IMG/VR virus record: IMGVR_UViG_3300027917_000024
Span: 1-64,000 of that record
Length of the DNA stretch: 64,000 bases
Source of the DNA: a virus
Strand: one strand, 5' to 3'
In this document: positions 1 through 36,659 of the stretch, piece by piece
Layout of the letters: each line of letters begins with the position of its first letter
Position numbering within the stretch: position 1 is the first letter of the stretch
Translations under genes and position numbers: made by a program
The notes under the pieces: generated by a model
What the model was told of the DNA's origin: nothing
What the model saw: only the letters and a program-made list of their open reading frames with translations
Databases searched by the model: none

Positions 1-22
1 AGTGTTACCTTCTTTGCCATAG

Positions 23-220
23 TTAGCCTCCCATAACTATTTCTAGATTATCTTCATCCTTCCTACTCTTCCTCCCTGCCCGATTCTCCTTGACCTCAAC
101 TAAGAGATCAATAGTTTCCTCATACCCACACCTACACGTCCAGAATTCCTTACCCTTGCGTTCGCCCCTGTAGCCAACGCTTCTAAACTTCATACTCTTA
201 CCACACTCATTACACATCAT
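23..220 (-). CDS. small zinc-ribbon-like hypothetical protein
   Basis: CxxC ... CxC motifs; GGAGG RBS upstream; directly downstream of the promoter at 271-299. Confidence 0.55.
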   Translation of the reverse strand: MMCNECGKSMKFRSVGYRGERKGKEFWTCRCGYEETIDLLVEVKENRAGRKSRKDEDNLEIVMGG

Positions 221-270
221 TTGTCTTGCCTCCCTTGTGATATTGAATAGTATATTTACTTCTAATACTA

Positions 271-299
271 TTTATACCACAGGGTTTGCATTTTGTCAA
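271..299 (-). promoter_or_regulatory. sigma70-type promoter with extended -10
   Basis: minus strand TTGACA-aaatgcaaaccctgtgg(17)-TATAAA, with A-tracts upstream; same architecture at 6671, 8599 and 10119. Confidence 0.8.
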
Positions 300-385
300 C
301 CTCTTTTTTCAAATTTTTTCATATTTTTTAGGGGCTTATAATAGAACAAGATACTCACTAGTATAACGGCCTGTAACTAGTCTCC

Positions 386-918
386 CTTTCACTTCGATTC
401 GGCTCTGCTCTCTTCCAGTTCTTATCATATCACTTCCTTTCTGCTCATCTCCTCTCCACTTCCCCTCTGCTCCGGTCTTATCATCTCCGTTTCGGTTCTC
501 TCCCCCTCCGTTCGGATCTCTTCCATCTCAACTCTGATCTTGTCTTCTCCAACTCAGCTCATCTCACTCGGATCTGTTCAGTACCCTTCTGTTCACTTCC
601 AGTTCATCACGATTCCCTTCCTTTCTGTTCCTCTCCAACTCCCATCGTATCGGATCTAATCTTCTCTGTTCGCTTCCGGTTCTCCTCATGTCGGATCCGT
701 CCCGTTCAGTTCCTTCTCCAATCGTATCGGATCTAATCTTCTCTTGTGATTTCCTGTTCCTTTCCTTTCGGGTCTGGTCAGCTCCATTTCTTTTCAGTAC
801 AAAAAACTACGACTCATACGTTTCCGAATCATTTCTTCTTATCTCTTGTCACATCCTTTTCCCCTCAAATCTTTTCTTTTCTACTCTCCTCTTCTCCCGT
901 TCTGGTCATTTCCCCTTC
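386..918 (-). repeat. pentamer-periodic non-coding array, (GA-NNN)n on the minus strand; candidate guide-RNA array
   Basis: plus strand parses as ctttc acttc gattc ggctc tgctc tcttc c.agttc ttatc atatc acttc ...; about 80 units in 386-800 and about 18 in 826-918; TC nearly invariant, other three positions variable; intergenic. Confidence 0.9.
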
Positions 919-1471
919 AACCCATAAAATCCTTCACATAAGATTTTCTGTTCTCGTTGAAGATCTTGAGTACATGCACGATATACTCTGCAGCCTCTTC
1001 CTTTGTGTAATGAAGATCTTTCTCTAAACGCTCTTGTAGTTGCAGTGCAGTTAGGTAGAGTAAGTCACCGGAGACCCATTGATTAGCTAGAATACCAAGG
1101 AACAACTGGAAGTCAGGAGGTATAGGATTAGAGACGTGATCATATGGACTCGCCTCGGTTACACTCCGCTTATGCACATCTTCTCTCCAGGTATTGAAGA
1201 GAGAAGAAGAACAACCTGCATTGATAGCTAGCTCCTTCCGGTACCTCTCACCTACCTCACCGGGAAGCAGGGCAAGTTTACAGAGGTACCGGCTAAGATC
1301 ATCACTCCATACCAGTTGAGGGCAATGTGTTACACCAGGATAGAGTCGAGAGGAAGCAGCGCAAGGAGCTTTCATACAACAATAGCCACACCCTACACAC
1401 TCAGCTGTCTGTATCTGACTTTCCGTTTGTATTATTGCATCCATTACTTTTCGACTCATACCCCTCACCAT
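917..1471 (-). CDS. Cys-rich putative Fe-S/Zn-binding protein (CxxCGxCC, YkgJ-like) lying between the two arrays
   Basis: CVGCGYCCMKAPC plus further cysteines (HCPQL, YLCKL, AGCSS). Confidence 0.6.
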   Translation of the reverse strand: MVRGMSRKVMDAIIQTESQIQTAECVGCGYCCMKAPCAASSRLYPGVTHCPQLVWSDDLSRYLCKLALLPGEVGERYRKELAINAGCSSSLFNTWREDVHKRSVTEASPYDHVSNPIPPDFQLFLGILANQWVSGDLLYLTALQLQERLEKDLHYTKEEAAEYIVHVLKIFNENRKSYVKDFMG

Positions 1472-1597
1472 TCACATCACATCAGTTCCTTGTCTGATCG
1501 CCTCCTCTCAGATCTGTTCCCTTTCTCCTCATTTCTCATCTCTTCTAAGCTCCTCTTTTCCTTTACTTTTCCCTTCTGATCGCATCAAATCCGGTTC
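1469..1597 (-). repeat. second pentamer-periodic (GA-NNN)n array
   Basis: plus strand cattc acatc acatc agttc c.ttgtc tgatc gcctc ctctc agatc tgttc c.ctttc tcctc atttc tcatc tcttc ... aaatc c.ggttc; about 25 units filling the whole intergenic gap. Confidence 0.88.
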
Positions 1598-1787
1598 AGA
1601 CCACCACTCGTATGCTCTTTTCCGGTTCGTTCCTTGTCTCTAGAGGAGTACAAAAGTAAATATCATTACAATGTCTGCACTCATAAGTTGGTTCGCATTG
1701 AAGTCCTTCGTAAGCTGGATCATCTTCCTTCTCTTCTTTAGTCAATAAATGCACAAACAATCCACAGTAAACACATCTCCATGCCAT
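1596..1787 (-). CDS. small Cys-rich hypothetical protein
   Basis: CVYC, CRHC motifs; tightly packed in the minus-strand operon. Confidence 0.5.
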   Translation of the reverse strand: MAWRCVYCGLFVHLLTKEEKEDDPAYEGLQCEPTYECRHCNDIYFCTPLETRNEPEKSIRVVV

Positions 1788-1788
1788 A

Positions 1789-2085
1789 TTATTTCCCCTT
1801 CTTCTTTTTCCTTGTGGCTATTTTGAGAGCAACATAATCATCATACAACGAATCCGACTGAGAAGATGGCCCAGGATCCTTCTTGAGCATTACAGAAAGA
1901 AGCCTCTTCCACTCTTCGGGCGCACACTTCTGACACCTTTTCAAATTCCTGAGCTCAATGTACGCTTTATGTTGCTTGCTGCTCTCCCCTTTATATAGCC
2001 AAGCATCAAACCATTCAGGATGCCCAAGAGAAACGTAGGTCTTCCTATCACACCCACCACAGTACCCACCAATAATAGCACTCAT
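1789..2085 (-). CDS. hypothetical Zn-binding protein
   Basis: CGGC and CQKC motifs; ATG at 2085 preferred because the track start (2175) overlaps the RAMP gene. Confidence 0.5.
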   Translation of the reverse strand: MSAIIGGYCGGCDRKTYVSLGHPEWFDAWLYKGESSKQHKAYIELRNLKRCQKCAPEEWKRLLSVMLKKDPGPSSQSDSLYDDYVALKIATRKKKKGK

Positions 2086-2090
2086 AACCT

Positions 2091-2780
2091 TCAATTTCCC
2101 TTCTTCTTCATCTTCATCTCTGCACGAGGCTCGAACTTGAGTGTATCGAACCTTCCCCATCCACCACTTGCCCACTGACTCATACCAAACTTGCGCCCAT
2201 AGCTAAAGATCGTCTCTAGCATTTCGATGTTCAGTTTACTTGTGGGGAGCAGCTCGACGGTGAAGTCCATCTTTGTTCCAGGCGGGAAGTAATCGCTACG
2301 GGTAAGAGCTGTCCTGGGACCTTGCGGAGTCATGGCACGAAGAGGCCTTTCGTAGACCGGCAACCTTCCTCCATTCTCTTTCAGGATACTAGGATCGTAC
2401 TGGAACCTGAGTTTCCTCGGCCAAACGAAAATGTACCGGTCAATCGTATTCTTGTATGCAGTCACCTTATCCACATCCTTGGTTTCCATGAGTACAGCCA
2501 AAGAGCTCTTCATGAACCCCTTTACCCAATAGTCGTACACATAGAAGCCATCCTTGTCCCTGAGAAAGGTTGTCCAGCCCCTTTGCTCAACTGCATCAAG
2601 AGCCTCGTATGCTTCTGTAACTTCCTTGGCAACCTCTTCCTCACTCTTCTTGCCTTTCTTGATCGCACGAGAGGCAATGTAGTCTTCATAGAGCTTCGGA
2701 TCTGCAGGACTCGTTCCCAAGCAGTTCTCTGTCCACTCAATACTGACATCGATCATCTGTCCATCGTCCATCATCTTCAT
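2091..2780 (-). CDS. stand-alone Cas7-group/RAMP-fold protein (Csm3/Csf2-like)
   Basis: RAMP motifs in the correct order: N-terminal strand + ENCLGTSP, YVYDYWVKGFMKS (cf. IPGSSLKG), RSDYFPPGTKMDFTV (cf. E.vp.Gt.f.f.i), C-terminal Gly-rich loop GMSQWASGGWGRF; AAGGAG RBS. Confidence 0.8.
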   Translation of the reverse strand: MKMMDDGQMIDVSIEWTENCLGTSPADPKLYEDYIASRAIKKGKKSEEEVAKEVTEAYEALDAVEQRGWTTFLRDKDGFYVYDYWVKGFMKSSLAVLMETKDVDKVTAYKNTIDRYIFVWPRKLRFQYDPSILKENGGRLPVYERPLRAMTPQGPRTALTRSDYFPPGTKMDFTVELLPTSKLNIEMLETIFSYGRKFGMSQWASGGWGRFDTLKFEPRAEMKMKKKGN

Positions 2781-2802
2781 TGTACTTTCTCCTTTCTATT
2801 CT

Positions 2803-3150
2803 TTACCAATTAACACCACCATAAAGAAACTCCTGTAGCTCTCCATCGTCCATTGCAGCGTACTCTTCGAACGTCTTTGTGACAGAACCAATGGTGATCG
2901 TTTGGTTGTCACAGTTGAGCTCAATAACCGGATGCTCATTGTCAGGCATGTAGCTACAGATCCCGAATCCGGTCTCTTCCGCTTCCTGGCCTTTAACCAT
3001 CTCACAAAAGACGATCCTTGTGAGGTAGGCATCGTCATCCCATCGCCATTTCTTCTTGAGCGCATCTCGGACGATGAAAGGTAGATGCCTTCCACCCCAA
3101 TGTGTGTACAGGTAGACTCCAGAAATCAAAACATTTGCTCTGTCACCCAT
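2803..3150 (-). CDS. phage hypothetical protein
   Basis: ORF with GGAG RBS; YLYTHWGG motif. Confidence 0.6.
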   Translation of the reverse strand: MGDRANVLISGVYLYTHWGGRHLPFIVRDALKKKWRWDDDAYLTRIVFCEMVKGQEAEETGFGICSYMPDNEHPVIELNCDNQTITIGSVTKTFEEYAAMDDGELQEFLYGGVNW

Positions 3151-3330
3151 TACATAATCTCCTTCATTCTTACTTCCTTTCAGTCTGTTAATACGTCAAC
3201 AATTCCATCACACTCATCACAATACCAAATCGAAAATACATGATCTACTATTTTTCTTTCTCCTCGTACATTTGTCTTTGCAATACTCACAACGGTTGCC
3301 CGATCCCTACCATTACCACATTCACACCAA

Positions 3331-3600
3331 TCATCTCGATCCTGTACTTGTCTTTTTATTCTTTGTGCTCGCCTCATCCACTTTCTCCTGCATGATAACA
3401 ATAGATGTGAGTTCATACTGTTCTGTAAATTGCCTCCCACAAGAACGGCATCTGACATCTGTTTCAATCCCCTTCTGACTGTCTTGGACGCACTCGCATG
3501 TAAGAGTCCGTTTTCTACAATCACTGAAGGGACAGCACATTCCTTCTTCTTTGACATATCGCTCCACTTCCTCAGCTGTTAGTCTTCTCTCTGTTTGCAT
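3331..3600 (-). CDS. zinc-ribbon hypothetical protein
   Basis: CPFSDC and CRSC motifs. Confidence 0.5.
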   Translation of the reverse strand: MQTERRLTAEEVERYVKEEGMCCPFSDCRKRTLTCECVQDSQKGIETDVRCRSCGRQFTEQYELTSIVIMQEKVDEASTKNKKTSTGSR

Positions 3601-3657
3601 TCCATATCCTTTATTTTTGAAAGTACAGTGCGTTCGGATCCTTCTTAACAGCCCAAG

Positions 3658-4215
3658 TCATCCCCCCGCATCTGGATAGCCCCCTGATGGAAAGGTAATG
3701 GTTCCATAGGAGTCCCGATGATTAGCTTCCAGTTCTTGACGAAATATGTAAGCATCCCCACAAGCTGCAGAACCAAGCTTACTTTCAAATTGTGGGCAGG
3801 TATCATGCATCACAATAAGTCCATGAGGTTTCAATATACAGTCCACGTTCCAAAAATCTTTCCTTACCTGTTCGTGACTATGACAACCATCTATCAAACA
3901 TACAGCAACAGAAGAAACTGATTGCTCCTCAAGATATGAAAAGAAATCATCAGATCTTCCTGTATACACTCGGCTTGCACCTGTTAAATCTTCCATCCAT
4001 CTTGCAGGAGCCGTATCACAATGGTAAGCAGTAGCCCTCCTTCTCTCAGCGAGTTCAGAGATTAATTTGGAAGAATACGGCCCCATCCCAATCTCGATTA
4101 TACTTCCTCCACGAAGCATACCAAGCATCCAATCAAAAGTGATTACAACCGCATCGCATCCAGTAAATCTACCGGCTCTTGCTCTGTTATATAATTCATC
4201 CGATCCGTTCGTCAC
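3658..4215 (-). CDS. class I SAM-dependent methyltransferase (Methyltransf_24-like)
   Basis: IIEIGMG motif I; LIDGCHSHE...D...LKPHGLIVMHDT. Confidence 0.8.
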   Translation of the reverse strand: MTNGSDELYNRARAGRFTGCDAVVITFDWMLGMLRGGSIIEIGMGPYSSKLISELAERRRATAYHCDTAPARWMEDLTGASRVYTGRSDDFFSYLEEQSVSSVAVCLIDGCHSHEQVRKDFWNVDCILKPHGLIVMHDTCPQFESKLGSAACGDAYIFRQELEANHRDSYGTITFPSGGYPDAGG

Positions 4216-7850: not shown

Positions 7851-8129
7851 TTAATCAATAACGACATACTCCCTCCCTTCACACTTCAGTAGCTTCACCG
7901 TATTCAGGTTTGCATTTCGATAGCTTAGAATTTTACGGTCAAACATGTTAACAAGGTGAGGTTTGCCTTCGGCAGGATTCCGACCGCCATTTGAATACTT
8001 CTTCACACCAGTTCGCCCATTCATTTGGCGAAAGCTCTTGTCCTGCTTTTCAAAGTAGACAGTAAAGAATCGGCCTTTCTGGTTTTCAATTTTACTTCTC
8101 AGTTCACTTCTCTTCAGTGGAATAACCAT
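7851..8129 (-). CDS. small phage beta-barrel (SH3/WYL-like) protein
   Basis: FFTVYFEKQDKSFRQMNGRTGV...FD....YRN pattern. Confidence 0.5.
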   Translation of the reverse strand: MVIPLKRSELRSKIENQKGRFFTVYFEKQDKSFRQMNGRTGVKKYSNGGRNPAEGKPHLVNMFDRKILSYRNANLNTVKLLKCEGREYVVID

Positions 8130-8153
8130 TTCCCTTTCCTTTCCTATTCATTG

Positions 8154-8447
8154 TTACCTTCTACCTGACCTTCCTTTCTTGGCTCGTTTATGTACTCGAT
8201 TATGTTGTGCCTTGGAAATCCTCTTCAAATTACTCTTACGCATATCTGATTTCTTCTTATTCCTATGATGAACAACTTCTCCAGGCTTGGCTCCAGCTTT
8301 TCTTCGATAGTAATGTGCGCTCTTTCCACCCTTCCATGCTCCGTTTTGAGCTCCTGTACGCATTAAACTTTTTTTCTTATCCCTTCTACTCCTATTCCTG
8401 CTGGTATCTCTTGGGCGTGTATTCTTGATTTTGCGTTTTGCCATCAC
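8154..8447 (-). CDS. very basic protein with HNH-like motif
   Basis: GEVVHHRNKKKSDMRKSNL.......HNRVH; K/R-rich. Confidence 0.6.
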   Translation of the reverse strand: MMAKRKIKNTRPRDTSRNRSRRDKKKSLMRTGAQNGAWKGGKSAHYYRRKAGAKPGEVVHHRNKKKSDMRKSNLKRISKAQHNRVHKRAKKGRSGRR

Positions 8448-11251: not shown

Positions 11252-11326
11252 TGGTAGGGCGAGGGGGATTCGAACCCCCGACTCCCTGGTTAAAGGCCAG
11301 GTACTCCTCCACTGAGTTACCGCCCT
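11252..11326 (-). tRNA. tRNA-Lys(UUU)
   Basis: cloverleaf AGGGCGG/UCGCCCU; anticodon arm CCUGG-CCUUUAA-CCAGG; UUCGAAU T-loop; CCA encoded. Confidence 0.9.
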
Positions 11327-11782
11327 GTGATCAACTCTAACGTATCTTTGGCTAGTTTGCCCCCATCTATCTCTATGTAAGACAATCCAACATGAGAGCT
11401 CGCCTTATCAGCATACCATTCCAAAGTTTTGGTTACTTCCTCATATTCTTTCATTGCTTCCTTTGCCACGTATCTCATAGCATTTGGTCGGCCTGTAAGA
11501 TTATCAAGGAGCTGCTATAGTTTCGACATCTTCCTTTTCATCCATACATCCTGGTCGGTGACGCTTCCAGTCTGGTAGCTCATTACCTAAATGGGTATCC
11601 TCAATCCATTCCTCTAGATAATGAATGTATGCCAAGAGCGATACGACTTTCTCATCCCAATGCACATTAAGATTCCTGTGATGATCGTCAGGAGGACACA
11701 TACTACATAGCAACGAAGGATACGCTCTGAATTTTCCTCTGCAAACATGCCCATCAGGTAGCATCGAGTTCTCCTTTCTCAA

Positions 11783-12103
11783 CTAGTGAAGTATCTCCTT
11801 ATTTGGTTTCTTGATTCTCCACTTATGGCCTTGGTATCCAGAGAAGGTTGCCCACCCCTCTTCTCCTCCAACAACTCCTCCATACCTCACATCGAATCCG
11901 CAGCTAAAAGTCTCTCCACATACTCTAAAAAACGCAGACTCAGATCCATTCTCAACCAACTCAATATCAGTAATAGTAGTCTTGGAATCACCTTGCATAT
12001 GGGCATCACCAAAATCCTGTAACGTCCCACCAATCCAGTCAGCCCTGCTCTCAACAAACTGGCTCCACAAGGGATATGTCTTACCGTTTATTACAAGTGT
12101 CAT
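11783..12103 (-). CDS. phage hypothetical protein
   Basis: 106 aa ORF in a tight operon. Confidence 0.55.
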   Translation of the reverse strand: MTLVINGKTYPLWSQFVESRADWIGGTLQDFGDAHMQGDSKTTITDIELVENGSESAFFRVCGETFSCGFDVRYGGVVGGEEGWATFSGYQGHKWRIKKPNKEILH

Positions 12104-12284
12104 ACATCACCCCCGTACACACTCTAGCTTCCAGCGCTTTGTCTTACAGTAGTCTCTCACATGCCCTAAGCTCCACCCTACCATGTACCTCAAGATAGGG
12201 GCTGAGAAAACTACCCGCCCTTCCTCAGCCTCGAACCCCGCTACAAAATGTCGAGCCGAGATCCTATAGAGAGATCGTCTTTCT

Positions 12285-12680
12285 CTAAGGATTGTCATCG
12301 TCATCTTCCCAATATTGCTCGATCAGATCACATAGAACTTCTCGGGCTCCAGAGGAAAGGCCAGCAAGACACTCTCCTGCAATCTCTCCTTGAAAATCAA
12401 AAACATGCTCCCACAGATACTCATGAAGGTACCCAAACAAAAACCCCTCGCAGAAGAAGGCATCGATAATCTCGTCACAGATAGCACACATCTTATATAC
12501 ATCCCAATTGCCTTCCCACTTCCCTGTAATGTATCTGTACTTGTGAGAGGGGAGGATCTTCTTTCCACACTCACAACACTGATACTCTTTTCTGGCAGTG
12601 ACCTCTCTATTGTTGTAGCACTCGGGATGCTCATAGTCTCCAACATAGATACAAGAGCAATCAGTCATTCTTACCTCCAT
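12285..12680 (-). CDS. Cys-rich phage hypothetical protein
   Basis: ARKEYQCCECGKKI...CAIC. Confidence 0.6.
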   Translation of the reverse strand: MEVRMTDCSCIYVGDYEHPECYNNREVTARKEYQCCECGKKILPSHKYRYITGKWEGNWDVYKMCAICDEIIDAFFCEGFLFGYLHEYLWEHVFDFQGEIAGECLAGLSSGAREVLCDLIEQYWEDDDDNP

Positions 12681-12984
12681 TCACTACCTTGAGCTCTTCC
12701 TTTCGGATCATCTTCACCATTTCCTTGTGCCCCTCTTCTGCTTCTTCCCAAGTGCTATACCTTCTCATCTCCTCATTATGCTCTCCACCAAATACCAACG
12801 TCTCGAAAAGCAAAGGAGGTCCGTTCCCAAACTGGAGATCAAGAACCAGAAAGACAGTTGAAACCTCCACATCTCCTGGTAGCTTATCATATGCTACCCG
12901 CCTGTCCTTCTCAAGAGCCCGAGCTGCCTCTTCCATACTCTTTGCTTTGACTGGCTTCTTGTCTTTCAGTACATACCATACCAT
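12661..12984 (-). CDS. conserved phage hypothetical protein
   Basis: VSTVFL.LD...GPPLLFET.VFGG...RYSTWEEA..GH motif. Confidence 0.65.
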   Translation of the reverse strand: MVWYVLKDKKPVKAKSMEEAARALEKDRRVAYDKLPGDVEVSTVFLVLDLQFGNGPPLLFETLVFGGEHNEEMRRYSTWEEAEEGHKEMVKMIRKEELKVVNGGKND

Positions 12985-12985
12985 T

Positions 12986-13447
12986 TCAATTAACCTCCTT
13001 CTTACTCGTTTGGCGCATCAGACCCATTAGCATTGTTTCTTGAAGCTTATAGAGCTCAGCTGATTTGAATATGTGAGACAAAACACCATTGATTAAAAAC
13101 TCCGATACTTGTGCCATAGTTGCTGTCAAAAAATCCCTGTGAATAAGAAGACAAAGCGCAAAAACTTCTACAGGAATTAAAATAGGCACATCTACAACTA
13201 AAAATATTTGTGAATCAACTGTCGGATCACCTTTCTCTTTTAACTTATCAAAAAAATCCTTAACGTAATGCATCATCTCATCTTCGGATTCGTATGCCTC
13301 TGTCACTTCTTCACTTATTAGCTTTATTACATCTACTAAGCGCTCCTTGAAATCATCCAGAAGTTCCTTGGGGATGTTTGTATCTTCCCGCATGTACTTC
13401 TCTAGGATCTCTAAAATTTCTTTCTCGTTAAGTTCATCCATACGCAT
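12986..13447 (-). CDS. hypothetical protein
   Basis: 153 aa acidic ORF. Confidence 0.55.
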   Translation of the reverse strand: MRMDELNEKEILEILEKYMREDTNIPKELLDDFKERLVDVIKLISEEVTEAYESEDEMMHYVKDFFDKLKEKGDPTVDSQIFLVVDVPILIPVEVFALCLLIHRDFLTATMAQVSEFLINGVLSHIFKSAELYKLQETMLMGLMRQTSKKEVN

Positions 13448-13462
13448 TCCTTATGATAAAGT

Positions 13463-13550
13463 TGGCGGAGGCTGTAGGACTCGAACCTACGCAGGTATTA
13501 CCCTGAACTCTGATTAGCAATCAGGTACCTTACCACTCGGTCAAGCCTCC
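13463..13550 (-). tRNA. tRNA-Ser(GCU)
   Basis: GGAGGCU acceptor, UU-GCU-AA loop, long variable arm, G73-CCA. Confidence 0.9.
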
Positions 13551-13565
13551 TTTTATTTTTATAAG

Positions 13566-13649
13566 CGGAGGGCATGGGATTCGAACCCACAAGAGTATTA
13601 CCTCCACATGATTTCCAGTCATGCGCCTTAACCGTTCAGCCAACCCTCC
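13566..13649 (-). tRNA. tRNA-Ser(GGA)
   Basis: CAUGA-CUGGAAA-UCAUG arm, long variable arm, UUCGAAU. Confidence 0.9.
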
Positions 13650-13652
13650 ATA

Positions 13653-14294
13653 CTATTCCTTATAGAAATACCATATCCCACGAATCGCCCTCTCATCCAA
13701 ACTATTATCATCACTGTAAGGAGCATCGTATTGATAGTAGGCAGAATTATATTTGTTCGTCATTACTCTATGAAATCTCATATTACAAGACTCTAATATC
13801 CCCTCTATCATAGCATGCGAAGGTCTATTACCAATCCGCTCGTAAGAGACATTATATCCTTTCTGCTTAACCCCCACTGTTTTGTCAGGATCCGCTGAGT
13901 TAACAAACTCCGTTTCAAGTATTACATATTGATTAGGCTTCAATAACGCACACAATTCAAGCAGATTCTTCCGAGGATCTGATAAATGGTATAAAGTTCC
14001 TATATGAAAAATAATATCTACCCCAGTAATATCCGGCCATCCTATATCCATATCCCATACAAAGAATTCAAGTTCAGGATGTAATTTTTTAGCATCTTCA
14101 ATATGCTCTTCCCTAACATCGAATCCTATAATATGCGGAGTCAATTCATAAAACATCATACCTAAATGACCAACACCGCAACCAACCTCTAATATACGCT
14201 TATTGACAATGTCTTCTTTAGGGATCAAATCTACAATAGCTTCATACAACTTCCGTCTGCGAGTTCCCCAATCTCCGTGATCAAATTTAGCCAT
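13653..14294 (-). CDS. class I SAM-dependent methyltransferase
   Basis: RILEVGCGVG, GFDVR, GTLYHL.DP. Confidence 0.85.
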   Translation of the reverse strand: MAKFDHGDWGTRRRKLYEAIVDLIPKEDIVNKRILEVGCGVGHLGMMFYELTPHIIGFDVREEHIEDAKKLHPELEFFVWDMDIGWPDITGVDIIFHIGTLYHLSDPRKNLLELCALLKPNQYVILETEFVNSADPDKTVGVKQKGYNVSYERIGNRPSHAMIEGILESCNMRFHRVMTNKYNSAYYQYDAPYSDDNSLDERAIRGIWYFYKE

Positions 14295-14316
14295 CTATCT
14301 GTACTCCTATTATATT

Positions 14317-14388
14317 TAGGGCCAAGGAGAATTGAACTCAGACCGGTGGATTGAAAGTCCCCCATCCTGACCATTAGAACATAGCCCC
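14317..14388 (-). tRNA. tRNA-Glu(UUC), degenerate
   Basis: GGGGCUA/UGGCCCU acceptor, CU-UUC-AA loop; mismatches in anticodon and T stems. Confidence 0.6.
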
Positions 14389-14400
14389 TTTTACTATTAG

Positions 14401-14474
14401 AGTGCATGATGGGAGTCGAACCCCTCTCATCAGGGTGGAAACCTGAGGTACCGCCACGTATACCAGACTCGCAC
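14401..14474 (-). tRNA. tRNA-Gly(UCC)
   Basis: UCAGG-UUUCCAC-CCUGA arm, UUCGACU; single mismatches in acceptor and T stems. Confidence 0.7.
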
Positions 14475-14478
14475 AATC

Positions 14479-14556
14479 TGGTGGAAGGGACTGGAATTGA
14501 ACCAGTGACCTTCTGGGCTTCGACCAGACGCTCTACCATAACTGAGCTACCCCTCC
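14479..14556 (-). tRNA. tRNA-Phe(GAA)
   Basis: UCUGG-UCGAAGC-CCAGA arm, standard D arm, ACCA end. Confidence 0.85.
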
Positions 14557-14770
14557 AAAAGCATACAACCTTTTATTATAGCTACAAGACTAAAGGATAA
14601 TCCAAATCCTATCAAGAGCACAGATACCCCAACCCTTCTAGTAAAAAAAATATCATCATCCAAGTATGCAATGAAACCTAGAAAAGACGAAAACAAAGCT
14701 ACAATAAAAAAGGTACATCCTAGAAAAAGCAACACATAACCCCAAAATTCTTCCATCTCATTCTCCTTTT

Positions 14771-14846
14771 TGGGTTAACCGGAGAGAATCGAACTCTCAC
14801 CTCCAGGGCCACAACCTGACGTGCAAACCTTTACACCACGGCTAAC
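14771..14846 (-). tRNA. tRNA-His(GUG)
   Basis: UU-GUG-GC loop, G-1:C73 pair, CCA encoded. Confidence 0.88.
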
Positions 14847-14855
14847 ATAGTAGAC

Positions 14856-15587
14856 TCAAGATATTCCCGCATTTTTGAGATATGTTGTCATTGCTTTTAT
14901 TGCTGCGTCTACATTCCTCGAACCGTGAATATGCATAATATGAGGACCATTATGATGAAGGCTAATAGATGGATTAGTACTATTATGGCCACCAATATCC
15001 TGAAAATTCAATCTTGGATCATAAATTTTTTCTCTTATTTCTTCTGGTGACATACCTTGCATATGAAAAAGGGTATTATAGATTATACATTCATATGCCC
15101 ATACATCTTTCCAGTCAGAAGCAATCTTATCTCCAGTCTCCCACATCTCATTTGTTATAGCTCCTACTGGATAGTACCTGACATTAGACATCATCCACGG
15201 CTTCAAATGATAATAAAGCTTTGGTTCAACCTTATGTGAATAACTACAAAACTGATTCTGGATATCAAACATCACAAACTTGTCATACTTACCAAAAATC
15301 TCAGTCGGTTTAATACAAACGGAATCTGAATCTACCCATAGAATATTACAGTCTCCTGCCTGGTAGATTTTCTTTATCCGATAATAAATATCCTGAAACA
15401 TTCTATGATAATTTTCAGCCAGTCCCTCTAATACTATAACCTCATCCAAATCCTTCAAGTTCTTTCGGAAGGAGCGTATACATAAATCTGTTAATTGTCG
15501 ATACTTATTAAATATTAGCAATCTCTTCTTGTCTAGCCCTTCTTTATCATTAAGGTCATAACAAGCTGTAATAAGTATATTAGCCAT
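14856..15587 (-). CDS. putative nucleotide-sugar (GT-A) transferase
   Basis: ILWVDSDSVC DxD motif; C-terminal IMHIHG. Confidence 0.55.
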   Translation of the reverse strand: MANILITACYDLNDKEGLDKKRLLIFNKYRQLTDLCIRSFRKNLKDLDEVIVLEGLAENYHRMFQDIYYRIKKIYQAGDCNILWVDSDSVCIKPTEIFGKYDKFVMFDIQNQFCSYSHKVEPKLYYHLKPWMMSNVRYYPVGAITNEMWETGDKIASDWKDVWAYECIIYNTLFHMQGMSPEEIREKIYDPRLNFQDIGGHNSTNPSISLHHNGPHIMHIHGSRNVDAAIKAMTTYLKNAGIS

Positions 15588-16875
15588 CCAACGCCCCTTT
15601 CAGCTCTATATTTCTACTTCCAGCTACCTCTTTCAGATACTTAAACCATTCCACAATCTGAGGGCTCGTATTAGGTTCAAAATCCTCTTTCCCTATCGTA
15701 TGGTAATCTTCAAAATTAGTGTTCTTGTTTAACACATAACCATATTTTTCAGGAGTCTGCCATACACTGCATCCTGGGAAAGGTTGAAAAATATGGATAC
15801 CAAACGCATCAACATACTCTGCACATGTAATAAACTCAGCCGTCTCAGCCACCGTTTCTTCTGTCTCACCAGGGAAACCTACAATCATCTGCCCCCTAAT
15901 TCTTATTCCTACCTTCTCACACGTAGAAATTGCATTGTAAGCCTGTTCTACTGTCGTCTTTTTGTTCATCATCTTTAGCATATTATTGGATCCGCTCTCA
16001 AAACCAAATACAAATTGCAAACATCCCGCATCCTTCATGGTTCGTAACAAATCATAATCACAACGATCCACTCTATTCAGACAGTGCCACTTTATTCCTA
16101 ATTTCTTTATCTTGTCACAGAACTCATACACTCGCTCCTTACTTATAACAAAAGTGTCATCTAAAATGTAAATGAGCTCCACCTTATATTTATTAATCAA
16201 GGTCTCCACTTCTTCTATGGTTCTATCTACACTATGACTCCTCACCTTTCCTCCCCAGATATAACTCTGAGCACAAAAATTACAATTGAAAGGACATCCC
16301 CTAGAAGTAATAAGTGTTGCTTCCCTGCACTCTCCTAATAAATACTTAAATGTCTGAGATCTTGAGTATCTATAAAAATCTACAAGATCTAAATCAGGTG
16401 GAGGAAAATCATCTATATCTGCAGTCAATGGGGTTTGTGGTGTACGAACAACCTTTCCATCAGAATCTTTATATGCTATATTAAAAACCTGATGTAAAGG
16501 GAGATGCAATAATTCAAACATTGCAATCTCACCCTCTCCTACCACACATACATCCGCATCTGTATTACTCAAAACATGCTCTGGAACAGTTGTAGCATGA
16601 GGCCCACCAACCACAACAAATGCATTCTCCCTTTCCTTTAATTTTTTTGTGATAGCTTGTATCTGAGGAAAATTAGGGGAGGTTCCTGTAATCCCATAGC
16701 AATCCCCAACGGGTATCTTCCACTGACGTTCTTCCAACCCAGACAAGTCACATAGCTGCACATCAATATTTCGTTTTTCCAAATAAGATGCAACATACAA
16801 TATTCCTAAAAAGGGGAGATCAGTATCCGAAATTAGCCAAGGACTCGGTGGGATAATAAGCACCACCTTTGGCAT
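15580..16875 (-). CDS. B12-binding-domain radical SAM protein
   Basis: PFLGILYVASYL, VVGGPHAT, VVGEGE, TSRGCPFNCNFC, GFESGS, IVGFPGET. Confidence 0.92.
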   Translation of the reverse strand: MPKVVLIIPPSPWLISDTDLPFLGILYVASYLEKRNIDVQLCDLSGLEERQWKIPVGDCYGITGTSPNFPQIQAITKKLKERENAFVVVGGPHATTVPEHVLSNTDADVCVVGEGEIAMFELLHLPLHQVFNIAYKDSDGKVVRTPQTPLTADIDDFPPPDLDLVDFYRYSRSQTFKYLLGECREATLITSRGCPFNCNFCAQSYIWGGKVRSHSVDRTIEEVETLINKYKVELIYILDDTFVISKERVYEFCDKIKKLGIKWHCLNRVDRCDYDLLRTMKDAGCLQFVFGFESGSNNMLKMMNKKTTVEQAYNAISTCEKVGIRIRGQMIVGFPGETEETVAETAEFITCAEYVDAFGIHIFQPFPGCSVWQTPEKYGYVLNKNTNFEDYHTIGKEDFEPNTSPQIVEWFKYLKEVAGSRNIELKGALDG

Positions 16876-17174
16876 AAGTACACATCTCCATTTTGTTTTT
16901 AGTTATCACCATTATACCATACCCATTCTAACATTTGTCTGTAATTTTGGTATAAGCTCTGCAGCGAAGACTACTCTCTAGTTCTCGCAATTGCTCACAA
17001 ACCTCATCGAATTCAAAAAGTATACACTCATAATATTTCAAATCAGCCACATCCATAACACCAAAAAAAATATCTAAACTATCATCTGCCGCTTTAATCT
17101 CCATCAACCGATTTCTAAGTTGTTTTCTAATTTTCTTTGCTTCTTTTCGTATTTCTTCAGACATAACAACCTCG

Positions 17175-17265
17175 TGGCGGGTGAGGGAGGAGTCGAACCT
17201 CCGGTGTTTTCTCGTAGAGTCACGGTTTTACAGACCGCTGCCCTCGCCTCTAGGCACACTCACCC
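17175..17265 (-). tRNA. tRNA-Tyr(GUA)
   Basis: GCGGU-CUGUAAA-ACCGU arm, long variable region, CCA. Confidence 0.85.
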
Positions 17266-17277
17266 ACTAATAAATTA

Positions 17278-17688
17278 TTACTCTCCTACCTCTTCCAAAT
17301 ATGCTTTATTAATCCAAAAGGAACAATTACCATGACCGTCTTCTTCCATACACACTGACGGAGAATTCATTTTTTCTTTTTGCTCATTAGATAACAAAGA
17401 ATAGTATTTCTCACTCATCGTAAATGAACAGAGTCCACCATCTTCTCTCAGACACAGAGAAGGCATCACATCCTCAACAGCCATAGGTGGAGTTTCATCA
17501 TCTAACCCTACCAAGCCTCTGCCCTCACCTGGAAAATAATCGATATTACTATCATCTTTACTAGCTGGATTTGTAAGTACGGAATGCCCAATCACCGGCG
17601 TCGTGCCATTCTGTAAAATAAGAAAAGAGCCTGTAGATATAAGAGCACCTAACACAACACATCCAATCGCTATTCCTAATAATCTCAT
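17278..17688 (-). CDS. secreted/membrane hypothetical protein
   Basis: N-terminal hydrophobic segment; duplicated PSxC..ED..G.CSF motif. Confidence 0.55.
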   Translation of the reverse strand: MRLLGIAIGCVVLGALISTGSFLILQNGTTPVIGHSVLTNPASKDDSNIDYFPGEGRGLVGLDDETPPMAVEDVMPSLCLREDGGLCSFTMSEKYYSLLSNEQKEKMNSPSVCMEEDGHGNCSFWINKAYLEEVGE

Positions 17689-17749
17689 GGTACATCTCCT
17701 TTCCTTGATCTGTTTACTTACTTAATTCCATTTATATATTTATATATGA

Positions 17750-17834
17750 AGCCTAGGGAGAGATTCGAACTCCCGATGGACTTACGTCTGAGGCTTACAA
17801 AACCCCTGCTCTCGACCACTAAAGCGACCTAGGC
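17750..17834 (-). tRNA. tRNA with UGU (Thr) anticodon and a long variable arm
   Basis: perfect GCCUAGG/CCUAGGC acceptor; GGGGU-UUUGUAA-GCCUC arm; V-arm GAC-GUAA-GUC; UUCGAAU. Confidence 0.8.
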
Positions 17835-17835
17835 A

Positions 17836-18759
17836 TTAAAATCCAAACTGTCCTGTATCCACCCACTCCATACTAATTAATGACCAGAAATCTAATGCTA
17901 GCTTATCCTCCGTATAAGCATATGGAAGCCATCCATAACCAGCTTCTCCCCATCCCCTCCCCCAACTATTCAGGAACTTTATAGCTCCCTTACTGGTTGC
18001 CCTTGTCTTTTCATCTTTTATAACAAGATTATCATCATATCCCACCGCCAACACAGCATGCCCACCAATACAAGCATCCTTTTTATTAGGATACGGAATC
18101 TTCCCACCACCACCATCCTTATAATTCTCAAAAACATAAAATCCAAACATAGATGGCATTCCGGCTGCAAGATATTTCTTTACTGAATAAAGAACTGCAC
18201 TTCCTTTCTTATCCAGTTTTACAGGATCATGAGAAAAATATGTCAAAGCTTCCCAGTTATCAGCTAATCCGTATATAAATGGGCCTGGAGCCTTGTCAAA
18301 TCCCTTGATAGAATATTTAAAATATTGCTCTGGAGGCACCCCAAACAATACCAAAGCCCCCATTGTACTTCTGAGATAAGCTCCTGTATCACCATGATCG
18401 ACACCTATAAGCCACCGTGTAACCTTATAAACAAATCTACGAGAACCCAAAATTGACTTCCCAAAAGCTTTTTCCTGATAGTATTCAACCATAGACGTTG
18501 CGGCATGAGCAGTACAAGATCCAAGTTTCCCTTGATCCTTGACAGTAGTAATCCACTTACCGAGATCAACTTTTTCGGGGAGAGGTGCTGGATCAGAACC
18601 TAACGGTATTCCCATCTTCTCAACTTGGCTCTTTATATCCAGCTCAGTATAGTCTCGTAAATCTGGGTATGACCGTAACCAACCCGTACCAAAAACTTTT
18701 TCAGCTTCTACATCTTCAATCCTGTGTGTTAATAATGACATACTTGATCCTCCTCTCAT
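17836..18759 (-). CDS. papain-family (C1A) cysteine peptidase
   Basis: DQGKLGSCTA (Gln/Cys), GGHAVLAVGYD (His), NSWG..WG..GY (Asn). Confidence 0.93.
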   Translation of the reverse strand: MRGGSSMSLLTHRIEDVEAEKVFGTGWLRSYPDLRDYTELDIKSQVEKMGIPLGSDPAPLPEKVDLGKWITTVKDQGKLGSCTAHAATSMVEYYQEKAFGKSILGSRRFVYKVTRWLIGVDHGDTGAYLRSTMGALVLFGVPPEQYFKYSIKGFDKAPGPFIYGLADNWEALTYFSHDPVKLDKKGSAVLYSVKKYLAAGMPSMFGFYVFENYKDGGGGKIPYPNKKDACIGGHAVLAVGYDDNLVIKDEKTRATSKGAIKFLNSWGRGWGEAGYGWLPYAYTEDKLALDFWSLISMEWVDTGQFGF

Positions 18760-18767
18760 TGTGGTTG

Positions 18768-18844
18768 TGGCGGGAATGAAGGGATTCGAACCCTCGACTT
18801 CCTGATCGACAGTCAGGTACGCTAGGCCGCTGCGTCACATTCCC
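18768..18844 (-). tRNA. tRNA-Asp(GUC)
   Basis: CCUGA-CUGUCGA-UCAGG arm, GCCA end. Confidence 0.9.
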
Positions 18845-19311
18845 TGGCTATTATTCAAAGCTCTATTTTTCTCTTCTTCCCAATCCTTATGATAAATATA
18901 CCCAAACTGATACACTATAAAATCAAGTAGATGGGTAAGCCCTTCCACTTTATCTTCAAGCTCTCGTATCTGCTGCTCTTGCTTCATTAACTGTGTGGTA
19001 GGATTAACTCTCAAAACTGGAACACTTTCTCTGGTCATCATACTCTCCCCTACTGGATCTGGAACTGGAACTGGAATTTGATGAAGAAGAACTACTAGTT
19101 CCAGTTCAAGCTCTAAATCGAGTAGTAGTTCTTCTTCATCAAGTTCCAGAGAATCTTTTTTATACCCCACTGTCTTTGCATATCTAAATCTATACCCACC
19201 AAGGACAGGATCTGATTTTCGCATAGCTTTAGACACAATAGTTTGTGGAATATTTAAATCATGTGAAATCTGTTTAATAGTATAATATCGTTTAATAAAC
19301 TTCCCTTTCAT
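18835..19311 (-). CDS. hypothetical protein with N-terminal HTH-like segment
   Basis: YTIKQISHDLNIPQTIVSKAM. Confidence 0.45.
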   Translation of the reverse strand: MKGKFIKRYYTIKQISHDLNIPQTIVSKAMRKSDPVLGGYRFRYAKTVGYKKDSLELDEEELLLDLELELELVVLLHQIPVPVPDPVGESMMTRESVPVLRVNPTTQLMKQEQQIRELEDKVEGLTHLLDFIVYQFGYIYHKDWEEEKNRALNNSQGM

Positions 19312-19325
19312 ATATTTTTACTATT

Positions 19326-19697
19326 TCAATTGCTACAAGTGCTTTGGAATACTTCGTCACACTGGTGTGAAGGCACATCTATATAGTCGCACCCCCGTTG
19401 ACGACATAAAGTTTCACAAGTCGTCTGACATCGTAAAATTTGGTGTGTAAAACTCCAGCAGTTAGCACAATGCCCCTCACAAATACCGGCACAGGAACCA
19501 CTACTTCCCCTGTATCCATCATCGTAGCTTCCCCCGTAATAGCCTCCATACTCACCACAGCCACTCAAAACAGAGGCTATGATCATAAAGAGGAATACAA
19601 AAAGTAAAATTAACAACCCTAACATCATCAAAAACGCTAGCCTGTCTTTGATTTTGGCAAGCATCTTCTCATCTCCTTGTCTAGGTAATCGACTCAT
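19326..19697 (-). CDS. Cys-rich putative lipoprotein
   Basis: hydrophobic helix followed by lipobox-like LSGC; many further cysteines. Confidence 0.55.
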   Translation of the reverse strand: MSRLPRQGDEKMLAKIKDRLAFLMMLGLLILLFVFLFMIIASVLSGCGEYGGYYGGSYDDGYRGSSGSCAGICEGHCANCWSFTHQILRCQTTCETLCRQRGCDYIDVPSHQCDEVFQSTCSN

Positions 19698-19708
19698 ACT
19701 TTACTCCA

Positions 19709-20013
19709 CTATTTACTACACTTACAAAATGGATCCAGCTTTACACAATAGACTTGTCCAACCACCGCACCAGCACACAGTTCCTTATGGTAACTCCTAT
19801 CATTCTGATCACAGCTCCACAATGACTTGCCGTAGCCTTCAAAATGTGCTATAATATGCTTTTCTGTCCTGCTCGCACAGCCCCCAGAACTCGTCCTCAC
19901 ATCCAGTTCAAAGTCAGTAAGCTTTGCCTTCTTCACACACTCGCAGCAATTCCACTCCGAGCATGTAGGAGCAAGAAGGAATGGCAGCAGTAAAAAATAG
20001 CAAGGATTTTCAT
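19709..20013 (-). pseudogene. Cys-rich secreted protein gene frameshifted in a T6 tract
   Basis: ATG at 20013 with GGGAG RBS; one extra T at 19992-19997 joins MKILAIFLLLPFLLAPTC to the 19709-19936 ORF. Confidence 0.5.
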
Positions 20014-20033
20014 GTTATCTCCCTTTCTTTTGA

Positions 20034-20116
20034 TGCAGGTGGAGGGAATCGAACCCCCAATCCCGAAGGCACACGGGCCTAAACCGTGCCTGTATCCCTA
20101 GTTCCAGCACACCTGC
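20034..20116 (-). tRNA. tRNA-Leu(UAG)
   Basis: CACGG-UUUAGGC-CCGUG arm, variable arm, A73. Confidence 0.88.
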
Positions 20117-20790
20117 ATAAATCATATGGCGTATAGTGCCCAAACAACTCATATAGTATCGGCTCATCTATAAAGCATCCAAATAGCAAAAATACATACA
20201 GCACCTAAAGTCCCATAGCAGATCACAACAGCAAGATTTTCCATGCTAATCTCCTTTATCAGCTGGTACTCTTTTCAAATGCTGCAATAAAAATATAAGA
20301 TCGTCTATGTCCTCAAAATTGAAGTCCCAACACATCCCTGCAGTATCATCTTTATCACCAGGAAAAGGATACCAAATACAGCAGCCGACCTTCCCTTTGT
20401 ACTCTATCTTATCCCCTCTAATGTTCCCTTGCTTGTATATATGAAACTTATCTTTCTTTTTCACCTGTACCATCAATCATCCTCCATTGAGTACTTAACA
20501 ACCACATGCTTCGGATTACCACAACCGCACATAAGAGTCTTCAATGGAACTTCCTCTCGCTTCTCAAAAATGTATTCCTTCCCACAAGGCATCCCAATTT
20601 TAAGTACAGGACATTTCAAATCCCGGTCACCATCCAAAAGCATATCCACTAAAATATTTCGATGCACCGCATGAATACCTACAAATTCTCCTAAGTCTTC
20701 TCCTTCAACTAGGTCTATTATTGCCTCCTTCTCAATATGATCTGTAGTTTTCTCCTCCATTTTATTCCTCCATGAGTTTACCACACAGTT

Positions 20791-20864
20791 TCGGGATGGG
20801 GTGATTTGAACACCCGACTCCCTGCGCCCAAGGCAGGTGCTCTTCCAGGCTGAGCTACACCCCG
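20791..20864 (-). tRNA. tRNA-Pro(UGG)
   Basis: CGGGGUG start, CCUGC-CUUGGGC-GCAGG arm. Confidence 0.9.
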
Positions 20865-21307
20865 TTAAAATCCTTTCTCATCCTTTGCATATCATCATCC
20901 CACCCAGATATATCGTAGTAGCCTAACTTACAATAAAGCCGTCGAGCACTCCAATTATTATCTCTAACATACAAAGCAGAGTACATACACCCTCTATCAC
21001 GAGCTCTACCTTCGAGAGTTGCAAGCAATCTAGATGCTACACCATTCCTTCTGAACGCTGGAACAACAGAGACATCCTGTACCTGCAAACTCTTCTTCCG
21101 TTTCCCATTATAAACAACTCCTACAGCCTTCCCTATTATTTGGTTACATATTTCCGCCTTCAAAACAATCGCACAGGGATTTCTAAGCCTTCTCACAAAA
21201 CTTTGCCTATCCCACTGCCCCATATACCGAAATGCCTTCTCCTCTACTGCCACTAATTCACAAACATCATTAAGAGTTGCCTCCCTTATATGTACTCTTC
21301 TTTCCAT
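20855..21307 (-). CDS. GNAT family N-acetyltransferase (RimI-like)
   Basis: VSVVPAFRRNGVASRLL, N..ARRLY.KLGY; ATG 21307 has a GGAGG RBS. Confidence 0.85.
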   Translation of the reverse strand: MERRVHIREATLNDVCELVAVEEKAFRYMGQWDRQSFVRRLRNPCAIVLKAEICNQIIGKAVGVVYNGKRKKSLQVQDVSVVPAFRRNGVASRLLATLEGRARDRGCMYSALYVRDNNWSARRLYCKLGYYDISGWDDDMQRMRKDFNGV

Positions 21308-21776
21308 CGCTCCTCCCTTTCTTGCTCTTTTTAACACTTGTACTAATCTTATCATCGCAAGCAGCAGTTCTATTCTCACCTAAAGCAACCTTGTTGTTCC
21401 AGCGTTCAGAACTTCTACGTAGCCGCACCCTCTCACGATTCTCTGCGTACCATTTCTTGAAGTAAGCAGCGATCCTTTCTCTATTCCTTCTACGATATCT
21501 CTTAGCATATTCCCTGATCTTATCCTGATTCTTTAACCTGTATTCAGCTTGTTTCAACAGCCTAGTTTCTCTATGCTTTATATGTACAAACTTGGAACAT
21601 TCGTAACAGTATTTGTACTTTCGATTTCTAACACTGCACCCAGAATCTCGGAAGTCATGACCACGTCCACAAAGCGATCCAAGATTCCACACTTCTGGAT
21701 TATAGCCATGTATCATCAACAGCCTCTTTTCCTCCGCTTCACTATACGGAGAATACTTTTTCTTCTCTTTCTTCAT
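21270..21776 (-). CDS. basic Zn-binding hypothetical protein
   Basis: CGRGH...CYEC followed by K/R/Y helical repeats; start moved to 21776 to avoid the tRNA-Val overlap. Confidence 0.55.
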   Translation of the reverse strand: MKKEKKKYSPYSEAEEKRLLMIHGYNPEVWNLGSLCGRGHDFRDSGCSVRNRKYKYCYECSKFVHIKHRETRLLKQAEYRLKNQDKIREYAKRYRRRNRERIAAYFKKWYAENRERVRLRRSSERWNNKVALGENRTAACDDKISTSVKKSKKGRSDGKKSTYKGGNS

Positions 21777-21796
21777 TTTACCTTTCCTCCTTTTTC

Positions 21797-21872
21797 TGGT
21801 AGACGAGATAGGATTCGAACCTACGATCCCTTGCTTGTAAGGCAAGTGCTTTAACCACTAAGCTACTCGTCT
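21797..21872 (-). tRNA. tRNA-Val(UAC)
   Basis: CUUGC-CUUACAA-GCAAG arm, ACCA end. Confidence 0.92.
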
Positions 21873-22132
21873 GTTTTTACATACTTCCAGGTAGTATTTC
21901 TTCCTAGTTTTTCCTCCTTAGTTTTTCGTATATCCAGTTTTGTAACAATTACTTCTACGTCCACTTCCCACTCATGCCACGTATCACATTTATCACATAC
22001 AGCATAGAATATACCAACTTCGTGTGGTTCCAATGTTTTAAGTTCACACGGGCCGTCCTTACTTTGAAAATTTTCTAGTTCCACTCCACAACTGCAAGTA
22101 GCCTTATAATCCACGTAATCGAACATGCCCAT
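21863..22132 (-). CDS. phage Zn-binding hypothetical protein
   Basis: MGMFD...CSCG...FQSKD..C; CDKC. Confidence 0.6.
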   Translation of the reverse strand: MGMFDYVDYKATCSCGVELENFQSKDGPCELKTLEPHEVGIFYAVCDKCDTWHEWEVDVEVIVTKLDIRKTKEEKLGRNTTWKYVKTDE

Positions 22133-22388
22133 AGTTTATTATCTCTTAACTTTCCCCATTAGTATAATCTTCTCACACCTTCTCTTTCGATAATGCCTGA
22201 GCCAATCTAGAGCTCGCCTCTTTTACGAGACGATTATACCACTCTTCAACTCCGTCATGTCGGCGGCACACAACTTTAAAGGGATCCGGTATGCTCCTAT
22301 GATAAACCCACTTGTCTGAAGCCTTCTCCTTCAACATCTTCTTACAGATAAAACACTGTACTTCCGCCTCCTTCGAAATTTCAGCCAT

Positions 22389-22943: not shown

Positions 22944-22987
22944 AATTGCTCAGAATGGGATCAGTTACTAGCCCCGTTAGTTGTTGT

Positions 22988-23061
22988 TGGGCGTGGTGGG
23001 AGTCGGACCCACAAAACCGGGAGCTTAAATCCCGTACCTATACCAATTCGGTTACACGCCC
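22988..23061 (-). tRNA. tRNA-Leu(UAA) with short variable loop
   Basis: GGGCGUG/CACGCCC acceptor, CGGGA-UUUAAGC-UCCCG arm, T-loop UCCGACU. Confidence 0.8.
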
Positions 23062-34184: not shown

Positions 34185-34186
34185 AC

Positions 34187-36643: not shown

Positions 36644-36659
36644 AATACTGAGAGGTATC

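Follow-up and report, generated by a model that had tools for sequence, protein, structure and literature searches.

A stand-alone Vipr-family RAMP gene with co-oriented GA-NNN arrays in an uncultured marine-sediment phage: a probable VIPR locus of adenine type

Introduction

Here we analyzed a minus-strand locus near the left end of a 64,000-nucleotide stretch of viral DNA (hereafter the window), which makes up the leading 64 kb of one viral contig of 105,150 bp and 39.5% GC (IMG/VR record IMGVR_UViG_3300027917_000024). The locus combines a gene for a stand-alone RAMP (Cas7-like) protein, here called vipr, with two tracts built of five-base units, and an earlier note made from the letters alone had drawn a parallel with VIPR (Viral Interference Programmable Repeat). 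This class was described in 2026 in papers on its discovery (10.64898/2026.04.26.720920), its structures (.720927) and its biology (10.64898/2026.10.15.759431); in the first two it is presented as a solo RAMP protein that, with pentanucleotide-repeat vrRNAs, reads DNA via a gapped code.

Results

Genes and arrays at the locus

From position 3150 to position 23 every gene lies on the minus strand and the genes are closely packed. Along that strand the order is a 115-amino-acid (aa) open reading frame (ORF), the 229-aa vipr, a 96-aa ORF, a 63-aa Cys-rich ORF, the proximal array (array 2), a 180/184-aa Cys-rich ORF, the distal array (array 1) and a promoter-like element of the next gene (Table 1). 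The description of the arrays in the earlier note as simply intergenic and downstream of the gene has to be corrected, as three small Cys-rich ORFs intervene. As that note had stated, no CRISPR-like repeat-spacer array was found in the window; Cas1 and the Pfam RAMP models had no match across the contig and did match the positive-control genomes.

Table 1. Coordinates in the window of the vipr gene, the putative guide arrays and the neighbouring ORFs
Feature	Position	Strand	Description
vipr gene	2091..2780	-	Intact 229-aa ORF; stand-alone RAMP (Cas7-like) protein
96-aa ORF	1789..2079	-	CxxC...CxxC and basic tail; directly after vipr
63-aa Cys-rich ORF	1596..1787	-	Neighbour, between vipr and proximal array
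Proximal vrRNA array (putative)	1464..1597	-	About 25 GA-NNN units; lag-5 identity 0.53, segmentation
Proximal array blocks	1591-1562, 1560-1521, 1519-1490, 1488-1464	-	Four blocks, an extra G opening each
180/184-aa Cys-rich ORF	917..1459	-	Neighbour, between the two arrays; CVGCGYCC motif
Distal array, 5' part	845..918	-	About 14 GA-NNN units, purine-rich, including an 8-unit block (896-857)
Distal array, interruption	797..844	-	Predicted hairpin and terminal U6 run; GA phase lost
Distal array, main part	381..796	-	About 80 GA-NNN units in 11 blocks of 5-8 units

Periodicity and grammar of the arrays

Autocorrelation of the two tracts gave the sharp peak at a lag of five bases that had been expected of them, with identities of 0.52 (386-918) and 0.53 (1469-1597) against a background of about 0.27 (0.21-0.32 at the remaining lags), and no such peak was present in the DNA flanking either tract. 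A sliding scan in 100-nt sections over the window and the whole contig identified the two tracts as the sole extended period-5 regions, single sections at 8101 and 73626 also passing the period-5 threshold. A short TC-rich stretch of the window (8060-8210), where lag-5 identity is 0.45 vs 0.29 in one 100-nt section, has no adjoining RAMP gene and its signal probably reflects low-complexity sequence.

Phase-tracking segmentation of the minus strand divided the tracts into 157 units, 122 of them 5-mers with an initial G and the other 35 (about 22%) not G-anchored 5-mers. The second place of the 122 G-initial 5-mers is A in 81%, a cleaner second base than in any other member of the family sample described below, while positions 3 to 5 are mixed (A 34-45%); this reading on the gene strand agrees with the GA-NNN units noticed earlier, and the tracts are, as had also been claimed, no microsatellites, the variable part seldom repeating. 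Six-base units number 18, and units of four bases are absent. The base by which the former exceed the 5-mers is in every case a G ahead of GA (GANNNG followed by GA); it appears once every 5-8 units and divides the tracts into blocks whose lengths are 5n+1, mostly 26-41 nt. Some 16 of the blocks are clean and comprise 5 or more units. Both the GA phase and the GG punctuation persist over about 650 nt. A coding reading of the tracts was ruled out, their period being 5 and not 3, and so was a coding reading of the variable triplets, in which the depletion of stop triplets is part of a general avoidance of TpA (TAT and TAC are low as well, and TGA is high).

No Rfam family, hammerhead included, was matched within positions 1-4000, and no recurring tail was seen between blocks. 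The predicted fold of 386-918 (minus strand) has a z-score of -1.37 and one strong local stem only, the hairpin at 797-844, which is possibly a terminator or a processing element. The motif GTATGAGTCG is found both in this hairpin/U6 element and at 1455-1464 (minus strand) around the start codon of the 184-aa ORF, and this shared motif hints that a part of the 5' end of that ORF was duplicated into the distal array. Within the distal array a 77-nt segment is present as a higher-order duplication (588-664 and 665-741, with a weaker copy at 404-480), and the guide segment GAGAA GATTA GATCC GATAC GATKG occurs twice; these repeats show local duplication followed by divergence.

The Vipr protein and its homology to SUSP1 Vipr

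In the structure model the Vipr protein of the window has the Cas7 fold of a minimal RAMP, with an RRM core, a helical insertion at residues 28-67, a beta-hairpin thumb at residues 142-165 and a C-terminal glycine-rich loop (G-loop) with the sequence GMSQWASGGWGRF at residues 199-211, which bears out the assignment to the RAMP/Cas7 group and the terminal Gly-rich loop proposed in the earlier note. The profile search against the Protein Data Bank (PDB) pointed the same way, its top match being a type VII Cas7 G-loop (E = 0.002). No family for the protein was found in Pfam, PHROGs, NCBIfam or PADLOC, the PADLOC search returning for Vipr one weak unrelated match (a restriction-enzyme model, E = 0.0012) and nothing for the four other ORFs tested. 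Megablast of the locus against GenBank phages gave no match, and tblastn matches were limited to four gut phages without annotation (34-36% identity). Ten close homologs were identified, the nearest at 82-93% identity, and the four closest have in common a QWA G-loop. A profile of these ten reached 2,516 cluster representatives at E values up to 0.001, and by sequence comparison the Vipr of the window thus belongs to an extensive unnamed family whose members have about 200 aa.

As a reference we examined the locus of Escherichia phage SUSP1 (KT454805), where we found Vipr at L002:28474-29061 (minus strand), an adjoining vap1 and GGY-NN arrays in the two flanking gaps, an architecture in agreement with the published one. 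BLASTP between the window Vipr and SUSP1 Vipr showed no similarity (E = 0.5), and a narrow profile of 11 sequences had no match in the SUSP1 genome; broader profiles gave the link. Profile-profile comparison of the window family (161 sequences) with the SUSP1 Vipr clade (121 sequences) returned a probability of 96.3% (E = 1.6e-9) over 178 columns at full length, and the hidden Markov model (HMM) of the family matches SUSP1 Vipr at the G-loop. Because the alignment is full-length and the HMM match falls on the G-loop, the 229-aa protein is, as judged from these profiles, a distant but genuine Vipr. The parallel drawn in the earlier note is correct and in print (bioRxiv 10.64898/2026.04.26.720920,.720927), and profile homology joins it to this locus.

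Arrays beside relatives of the gene

Out of 561 IMG/VR relatives 80 loci were fetched and the 79 with enough data were analyzed. A period-5 array lies at most 1.5 kb from the gene in 80 of 80 loci (the 79 viral relatives and the window; median distance 41 nt), always with the periodic G on the sense strand of the gene, so that the arrays which had been predicted beside homologs were present and co-oriented in each of the 79 viral contigs. This match between the polarity of the G and the strand of the gene argues for an RNA product rather than a DNA site. In a further locus (L083), a 1.4-kb contig from another metagenome that encodes a Vipr 87% identical to that of the window, a GA-type array directly follows the stop codon of vipr.

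All of the family follows one grammar, with G fixed at position 1, positions 3-5 variable and a second base that depends on the clade (C 40-70%, T 45-70% or A 52-65%), the window being extreme at its 81% A; the locus is thus the GA-based variant suggested earlier, in a family whose repeat is G-[C/T/A]-NNN and of which the window is the most A-rich. Six-base units again appear once every 5-8 units, and 748 of the 855 open with GG. Between closely related phages the mismatch per unit position was 1.6% (the G), 7.4%, 13.4%, 18.7% and 16.6%, with 4.3% at the junction G, and array sequences change more quickly than vipr does (86% vs 99.3% identity in one example): the scaffold of the array is conserved and its content is variable. 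Among the IMG/VR loci (L003-L082), many phages of the Vipr family come from a single metagenome (3300045988) and have either A/C-type or C-type arrays. Where the array lies depends on the clade: it precedes vipr in the A/C-type clade and follows it in most others.

Residues of the G-loop and the second base of the repeat

In SUSP1 the first G of the repeat (G1) is read by H17 and D177, the second (G2) by R138 and by stacking on W178, and the pyrimidine (Y3) lies in a pocket whose walls are helix-1 and the G-loop, R179 included, according to the discovery and structure papers (10.64898/2026.04.26.720920,.720927). The profile alignment places H17 within a deletion of five residues in the window family and pairs D177 with an invariant Gln202, W178 with an invariant Trp203, and R179 with Ala204 in the window and Arg in most of the family. 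Loss of the G1 contacts together with a kept W178 equivalent would fit a repeat without G1 and with G2, and from this alignment we infer that the G of the window repeat corresponds to G2 and that its A may occupy the Y3 site.

Ser201 of the window aligns with G176 of SUSP1, a residue of the G-loop, which forms part of the wall of the Y3 pocket. Serine at this column arose three times on the tree (in the window clade, in the relative L017 and in an IMG/VR clade of 18 members), each time in concert with one of the three changes of the second base, adenine being frequent at position 2 of the arrays (0.42-0.81), against an A share of at most 0.37 with Gly, Cys or Leu. The association between serine in the G-loop and adenine as second base is suggestive and not significant.

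Discussion

Interpretation as a VIPR

Taking together the fold of the protein, its homology to the published Vipr, the grammar of the arrays and their presence, in the same orientation, beside every analyzed member of the gene family, each of which was shown here, we consider the locus, with a probability of about 0.9, to be the VIPR of an uncultured phage with a genome of at least about 105 kb, composed of a Vipr-family RAMP and arrays of vrRNA guides. The lost G1 contacts, the covariation of the second base with the G-loop and the absence of Cas1, Pfam RAMP matches and a CRISPR array point in the same direction, as does the viral setting, VIPR loci being minimal and found mostly on viral genomes. 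The two purine-rich tracts would be transcribed as same-strand guide arrays, and, by analogy with SUSP1, one Vipr protomer would assemble on each five-base repeat to form a ribonucleoprotein (RNP). In such a particle the constant G, like SUSP1 G2, would be stacked on Trp203 of the G-loop, the following A would be held in the protein pocket as Y3 is, and the remaining bases would be offered for gapped pairing with the double-stranded DNA of a rival mobile element, which would thereby be silenced. The extra G (GGA) every 5-8 units would most likely mark the boundary between guides of 26-41 nt placed back to back, that is, a 'staggered' array in which guides have no separate 3' tails.

Several points weigh against the VIPR interpretation. 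The strict GGY/NN (YNNGG) consensus is absent, GG being present only at block junctions in the window, and neither a conserved 3' tail nor a pseudoknot was found at the locus. A conserved accessory (vap) gene was not identified and no homolog of vap1 was found; three unrelated small ORFs separate vipr from the arrays, unlike the situation in most relatives. The replacement of the Y3-contacting R179 by Ala204 could mean an altered or weakened grip on the RNA, the mapping of residues and the register of the repeat come from a remote profile alignment, and the covariation with the second base comprises 3 events only, a number with which a sign test cannot reach significance. As regards the first two points, the Methods and the legends of figs. 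S17-S18 of 10.64898/2026.04.26.720920 allow a 'related consensus' (NNNGG, YNNNG, NNNNG), so that the mismatch to GGY/NN is compatible with VIPR membership, and the staggered arrays mentioned in that paper are likewise without separate tails.

Alternative explanations

The alternative that survives best accepts the same RNP and changes its code. With no more than two fixed bases in a repeat, each protomer might display three bases, with three paired and one skipped target base (a target period of 4 nt) instead of two plus one, an option that we regard as doubtful. It would agree with the variability of all of positions 3, 4 and 5 in close relatives (13-19% mismatch) and with the absence or change of the SUSP1 G1-contacting residues in the window family. 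Searches for targets gave it a slight lead over other rules: with exact five-unit seeds in 21 phage genomes only NNN plus one skip exceeded the shuffles (7 vs 2.8), and an 18-base NNNx pattern had 3 exact matches in IMG/VR against 0.3 by chance, the latter being a rough estimate. The seed matches, however, do not extend along the guides, the three IMG/VR matches lie in unrelated genes with agreement at only 1 of 18 flanking guide bases, and a weak excess is to be expected because many rules were tried; we therefore took both as chance rather than as targets.

No other search for targets with decoded patterns yielded a convincing signal in the sets used. In the own genome of the phage none of ten decoding rules found targets above shuffles, a null result in agreement with 10.64898/2026.04.26.720920, which reports no self-targeting for VIPR. 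The whole genomes of 20 related phages showed no excess at the level of blocks for target periods 3-6, the best matches being equal to those of reversed-guide controls, which is also a point against the three-base code. Exact IMG/VR scans with the block 676-637 gave 5, 4, 3 and 2 matches under the rules 34x, x45, NNNx and NNNxx, respectively, with no extension into the flanks and in unrelated contexts, and degenerate-peptide matching against Vipr proteins and phage ORFs was equal to shuffles. The fuller proposition that a G-[A/Y]-NNN code pairs three target bases and skips one, with the anchor base set by the G-loop residue (Ser for adenine, Gly for pyrimidine), is likewise a speculative one, which we hold to be unlikely.

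It is also improbable that the locus is a decaying or domesticated remnant of a VIPR, with an intact gene and arrays that no longer function as guides. The interruption of array 1 at 797-844, the share of units that are not G-anchored 5-mers, the ORFs between vipr and the arrays, unlike in L083, and the alanine at the R179 equivalent might be taken in this sense. Against it, the GA phase and the GG punctuation have been kept over the length of the tracts with a prevailing A at position 2, the QWA G-loop of the four closest homologs makes the alanine a conserved trait of the clade, and vrRNAs are described as often internally degenerate in 10.64898/2026.04.26.720920. Least probable is a role of the tracts as DNA (protein-binding iterons, curved DNA or an origin-like element) beside a RAMP with an unrelated role in RNA binding: although no sigma-70-type promoter or terminator was predicted on the minus strand near the arrays, the polarity of the G seen in 80 of 80 loci would be superfluous for a site in double-stranded DNA, the second base of the repeat covaries with a G-loop residue, and the homologous SUSP1 system is experimentally an RNP (10.64898/2026.04.26.720920,.720927).

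Neighbouring genes and the rest of the contig

None of the three small Cys-rich ORFs had a family match in the libraries; the 96-aa ORF is a weak candidate for an accessory (vap) gene. The 180/184-aa ORF gave a weak lead to zinc/iron-chelating domains of the CxxCxxCC kind (atlas score 0.78; NCBIfam E = 0.008, under the cut-off). No homologs of the three Cys-rich ORFs were found beside vipr in 80 related loci, and the three ORFs are absent from L083. Just downstream of the distal array, at 271-299 (minus strand) and upstream of a 65-aa zinc-ribbon ORF (23-220), there is a near-consensus sigma-70-type promoter (TTGACA, 17 nt, TATAAA), which the consensus scan did not pick up because its -10 hexamer ends in A.

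The contig comes from marine sediment and represents an uncultured phage at 72% completeness (CheckV), with genes for ribonucleotide reductase, helicases, primase, DNA polymerase, a UvsX-like recombinase and SbcC among its replication functions. The sequencing runs that hold the locus are DNA runs of marine sediment metagenomes only, and contigs from three of these DNA runs gave the same phage again, without array variants. Elsewhere in the window, 14 tRNA genes are clustered at 11252-23061 (minus strand), interspersed with small ORFs, and at 31326-40623 (plus strand) ribonucleotide reductase, helicase and primase-helicase ORFs contain internal matches to terminase, endonuclease and helicase PHROGs, which look like intein or homing-endonuclease insertions. 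Two HNH-type genes with 45-nt tandem coding repeats lie at 54852-57103.

Significance

Programmable RNA-guided DNA binders of the VIPR class have been known for months only, and bench tests have so far been made only on GGY/NN systems. The locus and its 79 relatives document a large branch (about 2,500 cluster representatives) that uses one G, a clade-specific second base and punctuation by an extra G. That the second base tracks one G-loop residue offers a concrete hypothesis of how Vipr chooses its scaffold letters and, if the anchor base is indeed set by that residue, the scaffold would be re-designable; with three free bases per repeat, whether the code stays two-plus-one becomes a testable question. 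For annotation, the practical consequence is that such arrays are missed by strict GGY searches.

Comparison with known systems

With the Csm3/Cas7 backbone subunits of type III and type VII CRISPR systems (9ash_F, 6ifn_E, 8yhd) the window protein has the Cas7 fold in common at an identity of 7-13%. Unlike those systems, the contig has no Cas10, Cas5, Cas6, Cas1 or CRISPR array, the repeat advances in steps of 5 nt and not the 6 of type III/VII Cas7, and the protein stands alone in a phage.

The resemblance to the type II VIPR of SUSP1 is closer. Both are phage-encoded, with neither cas genes nor a CRISPR array, and have a lone small RAMP with an RRM core, a thumb and a C-terminal G-loop (G-x-G/S-D/Q-W-...-G-R-F), accompanied by co-oriented arrays of five-base repeats in which a fixed, G-containing part alternates with a hypervariable part. 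SUSP1 has a Vipr of 195 aa, vap1 and four vrRNAs, whereas the window has a Vipr of 229 aa and far longer arrays with their about 16 clean blocks; its repeat is G-A-NNN instead of G-G-Y-NN, and it has the extra G every 5-8 units where no 3' tail or pseudoknot for each guide was found. In the notation of 10.64898/2026.04.26.720920 most of the window family, with G-[C/T]-NNN repeats, is YNNNG, and the one-base offset of abutting blocks fits the legend on 'staggered arrays' in that paper; the locus is probably a VIPR of the YNNNG/NNNNG 'staggered array' kind. The text of that paper, as far as it is accessible, makes no mention of adenine at the pyrimidine position, which reaches 81% in the window and 52-65% in one IMG/VR clade. 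The class, the alternative repeats and the staggered arrays are thus already published, and what the present locus adds to them is a variant of adenine type punctuated by GG.

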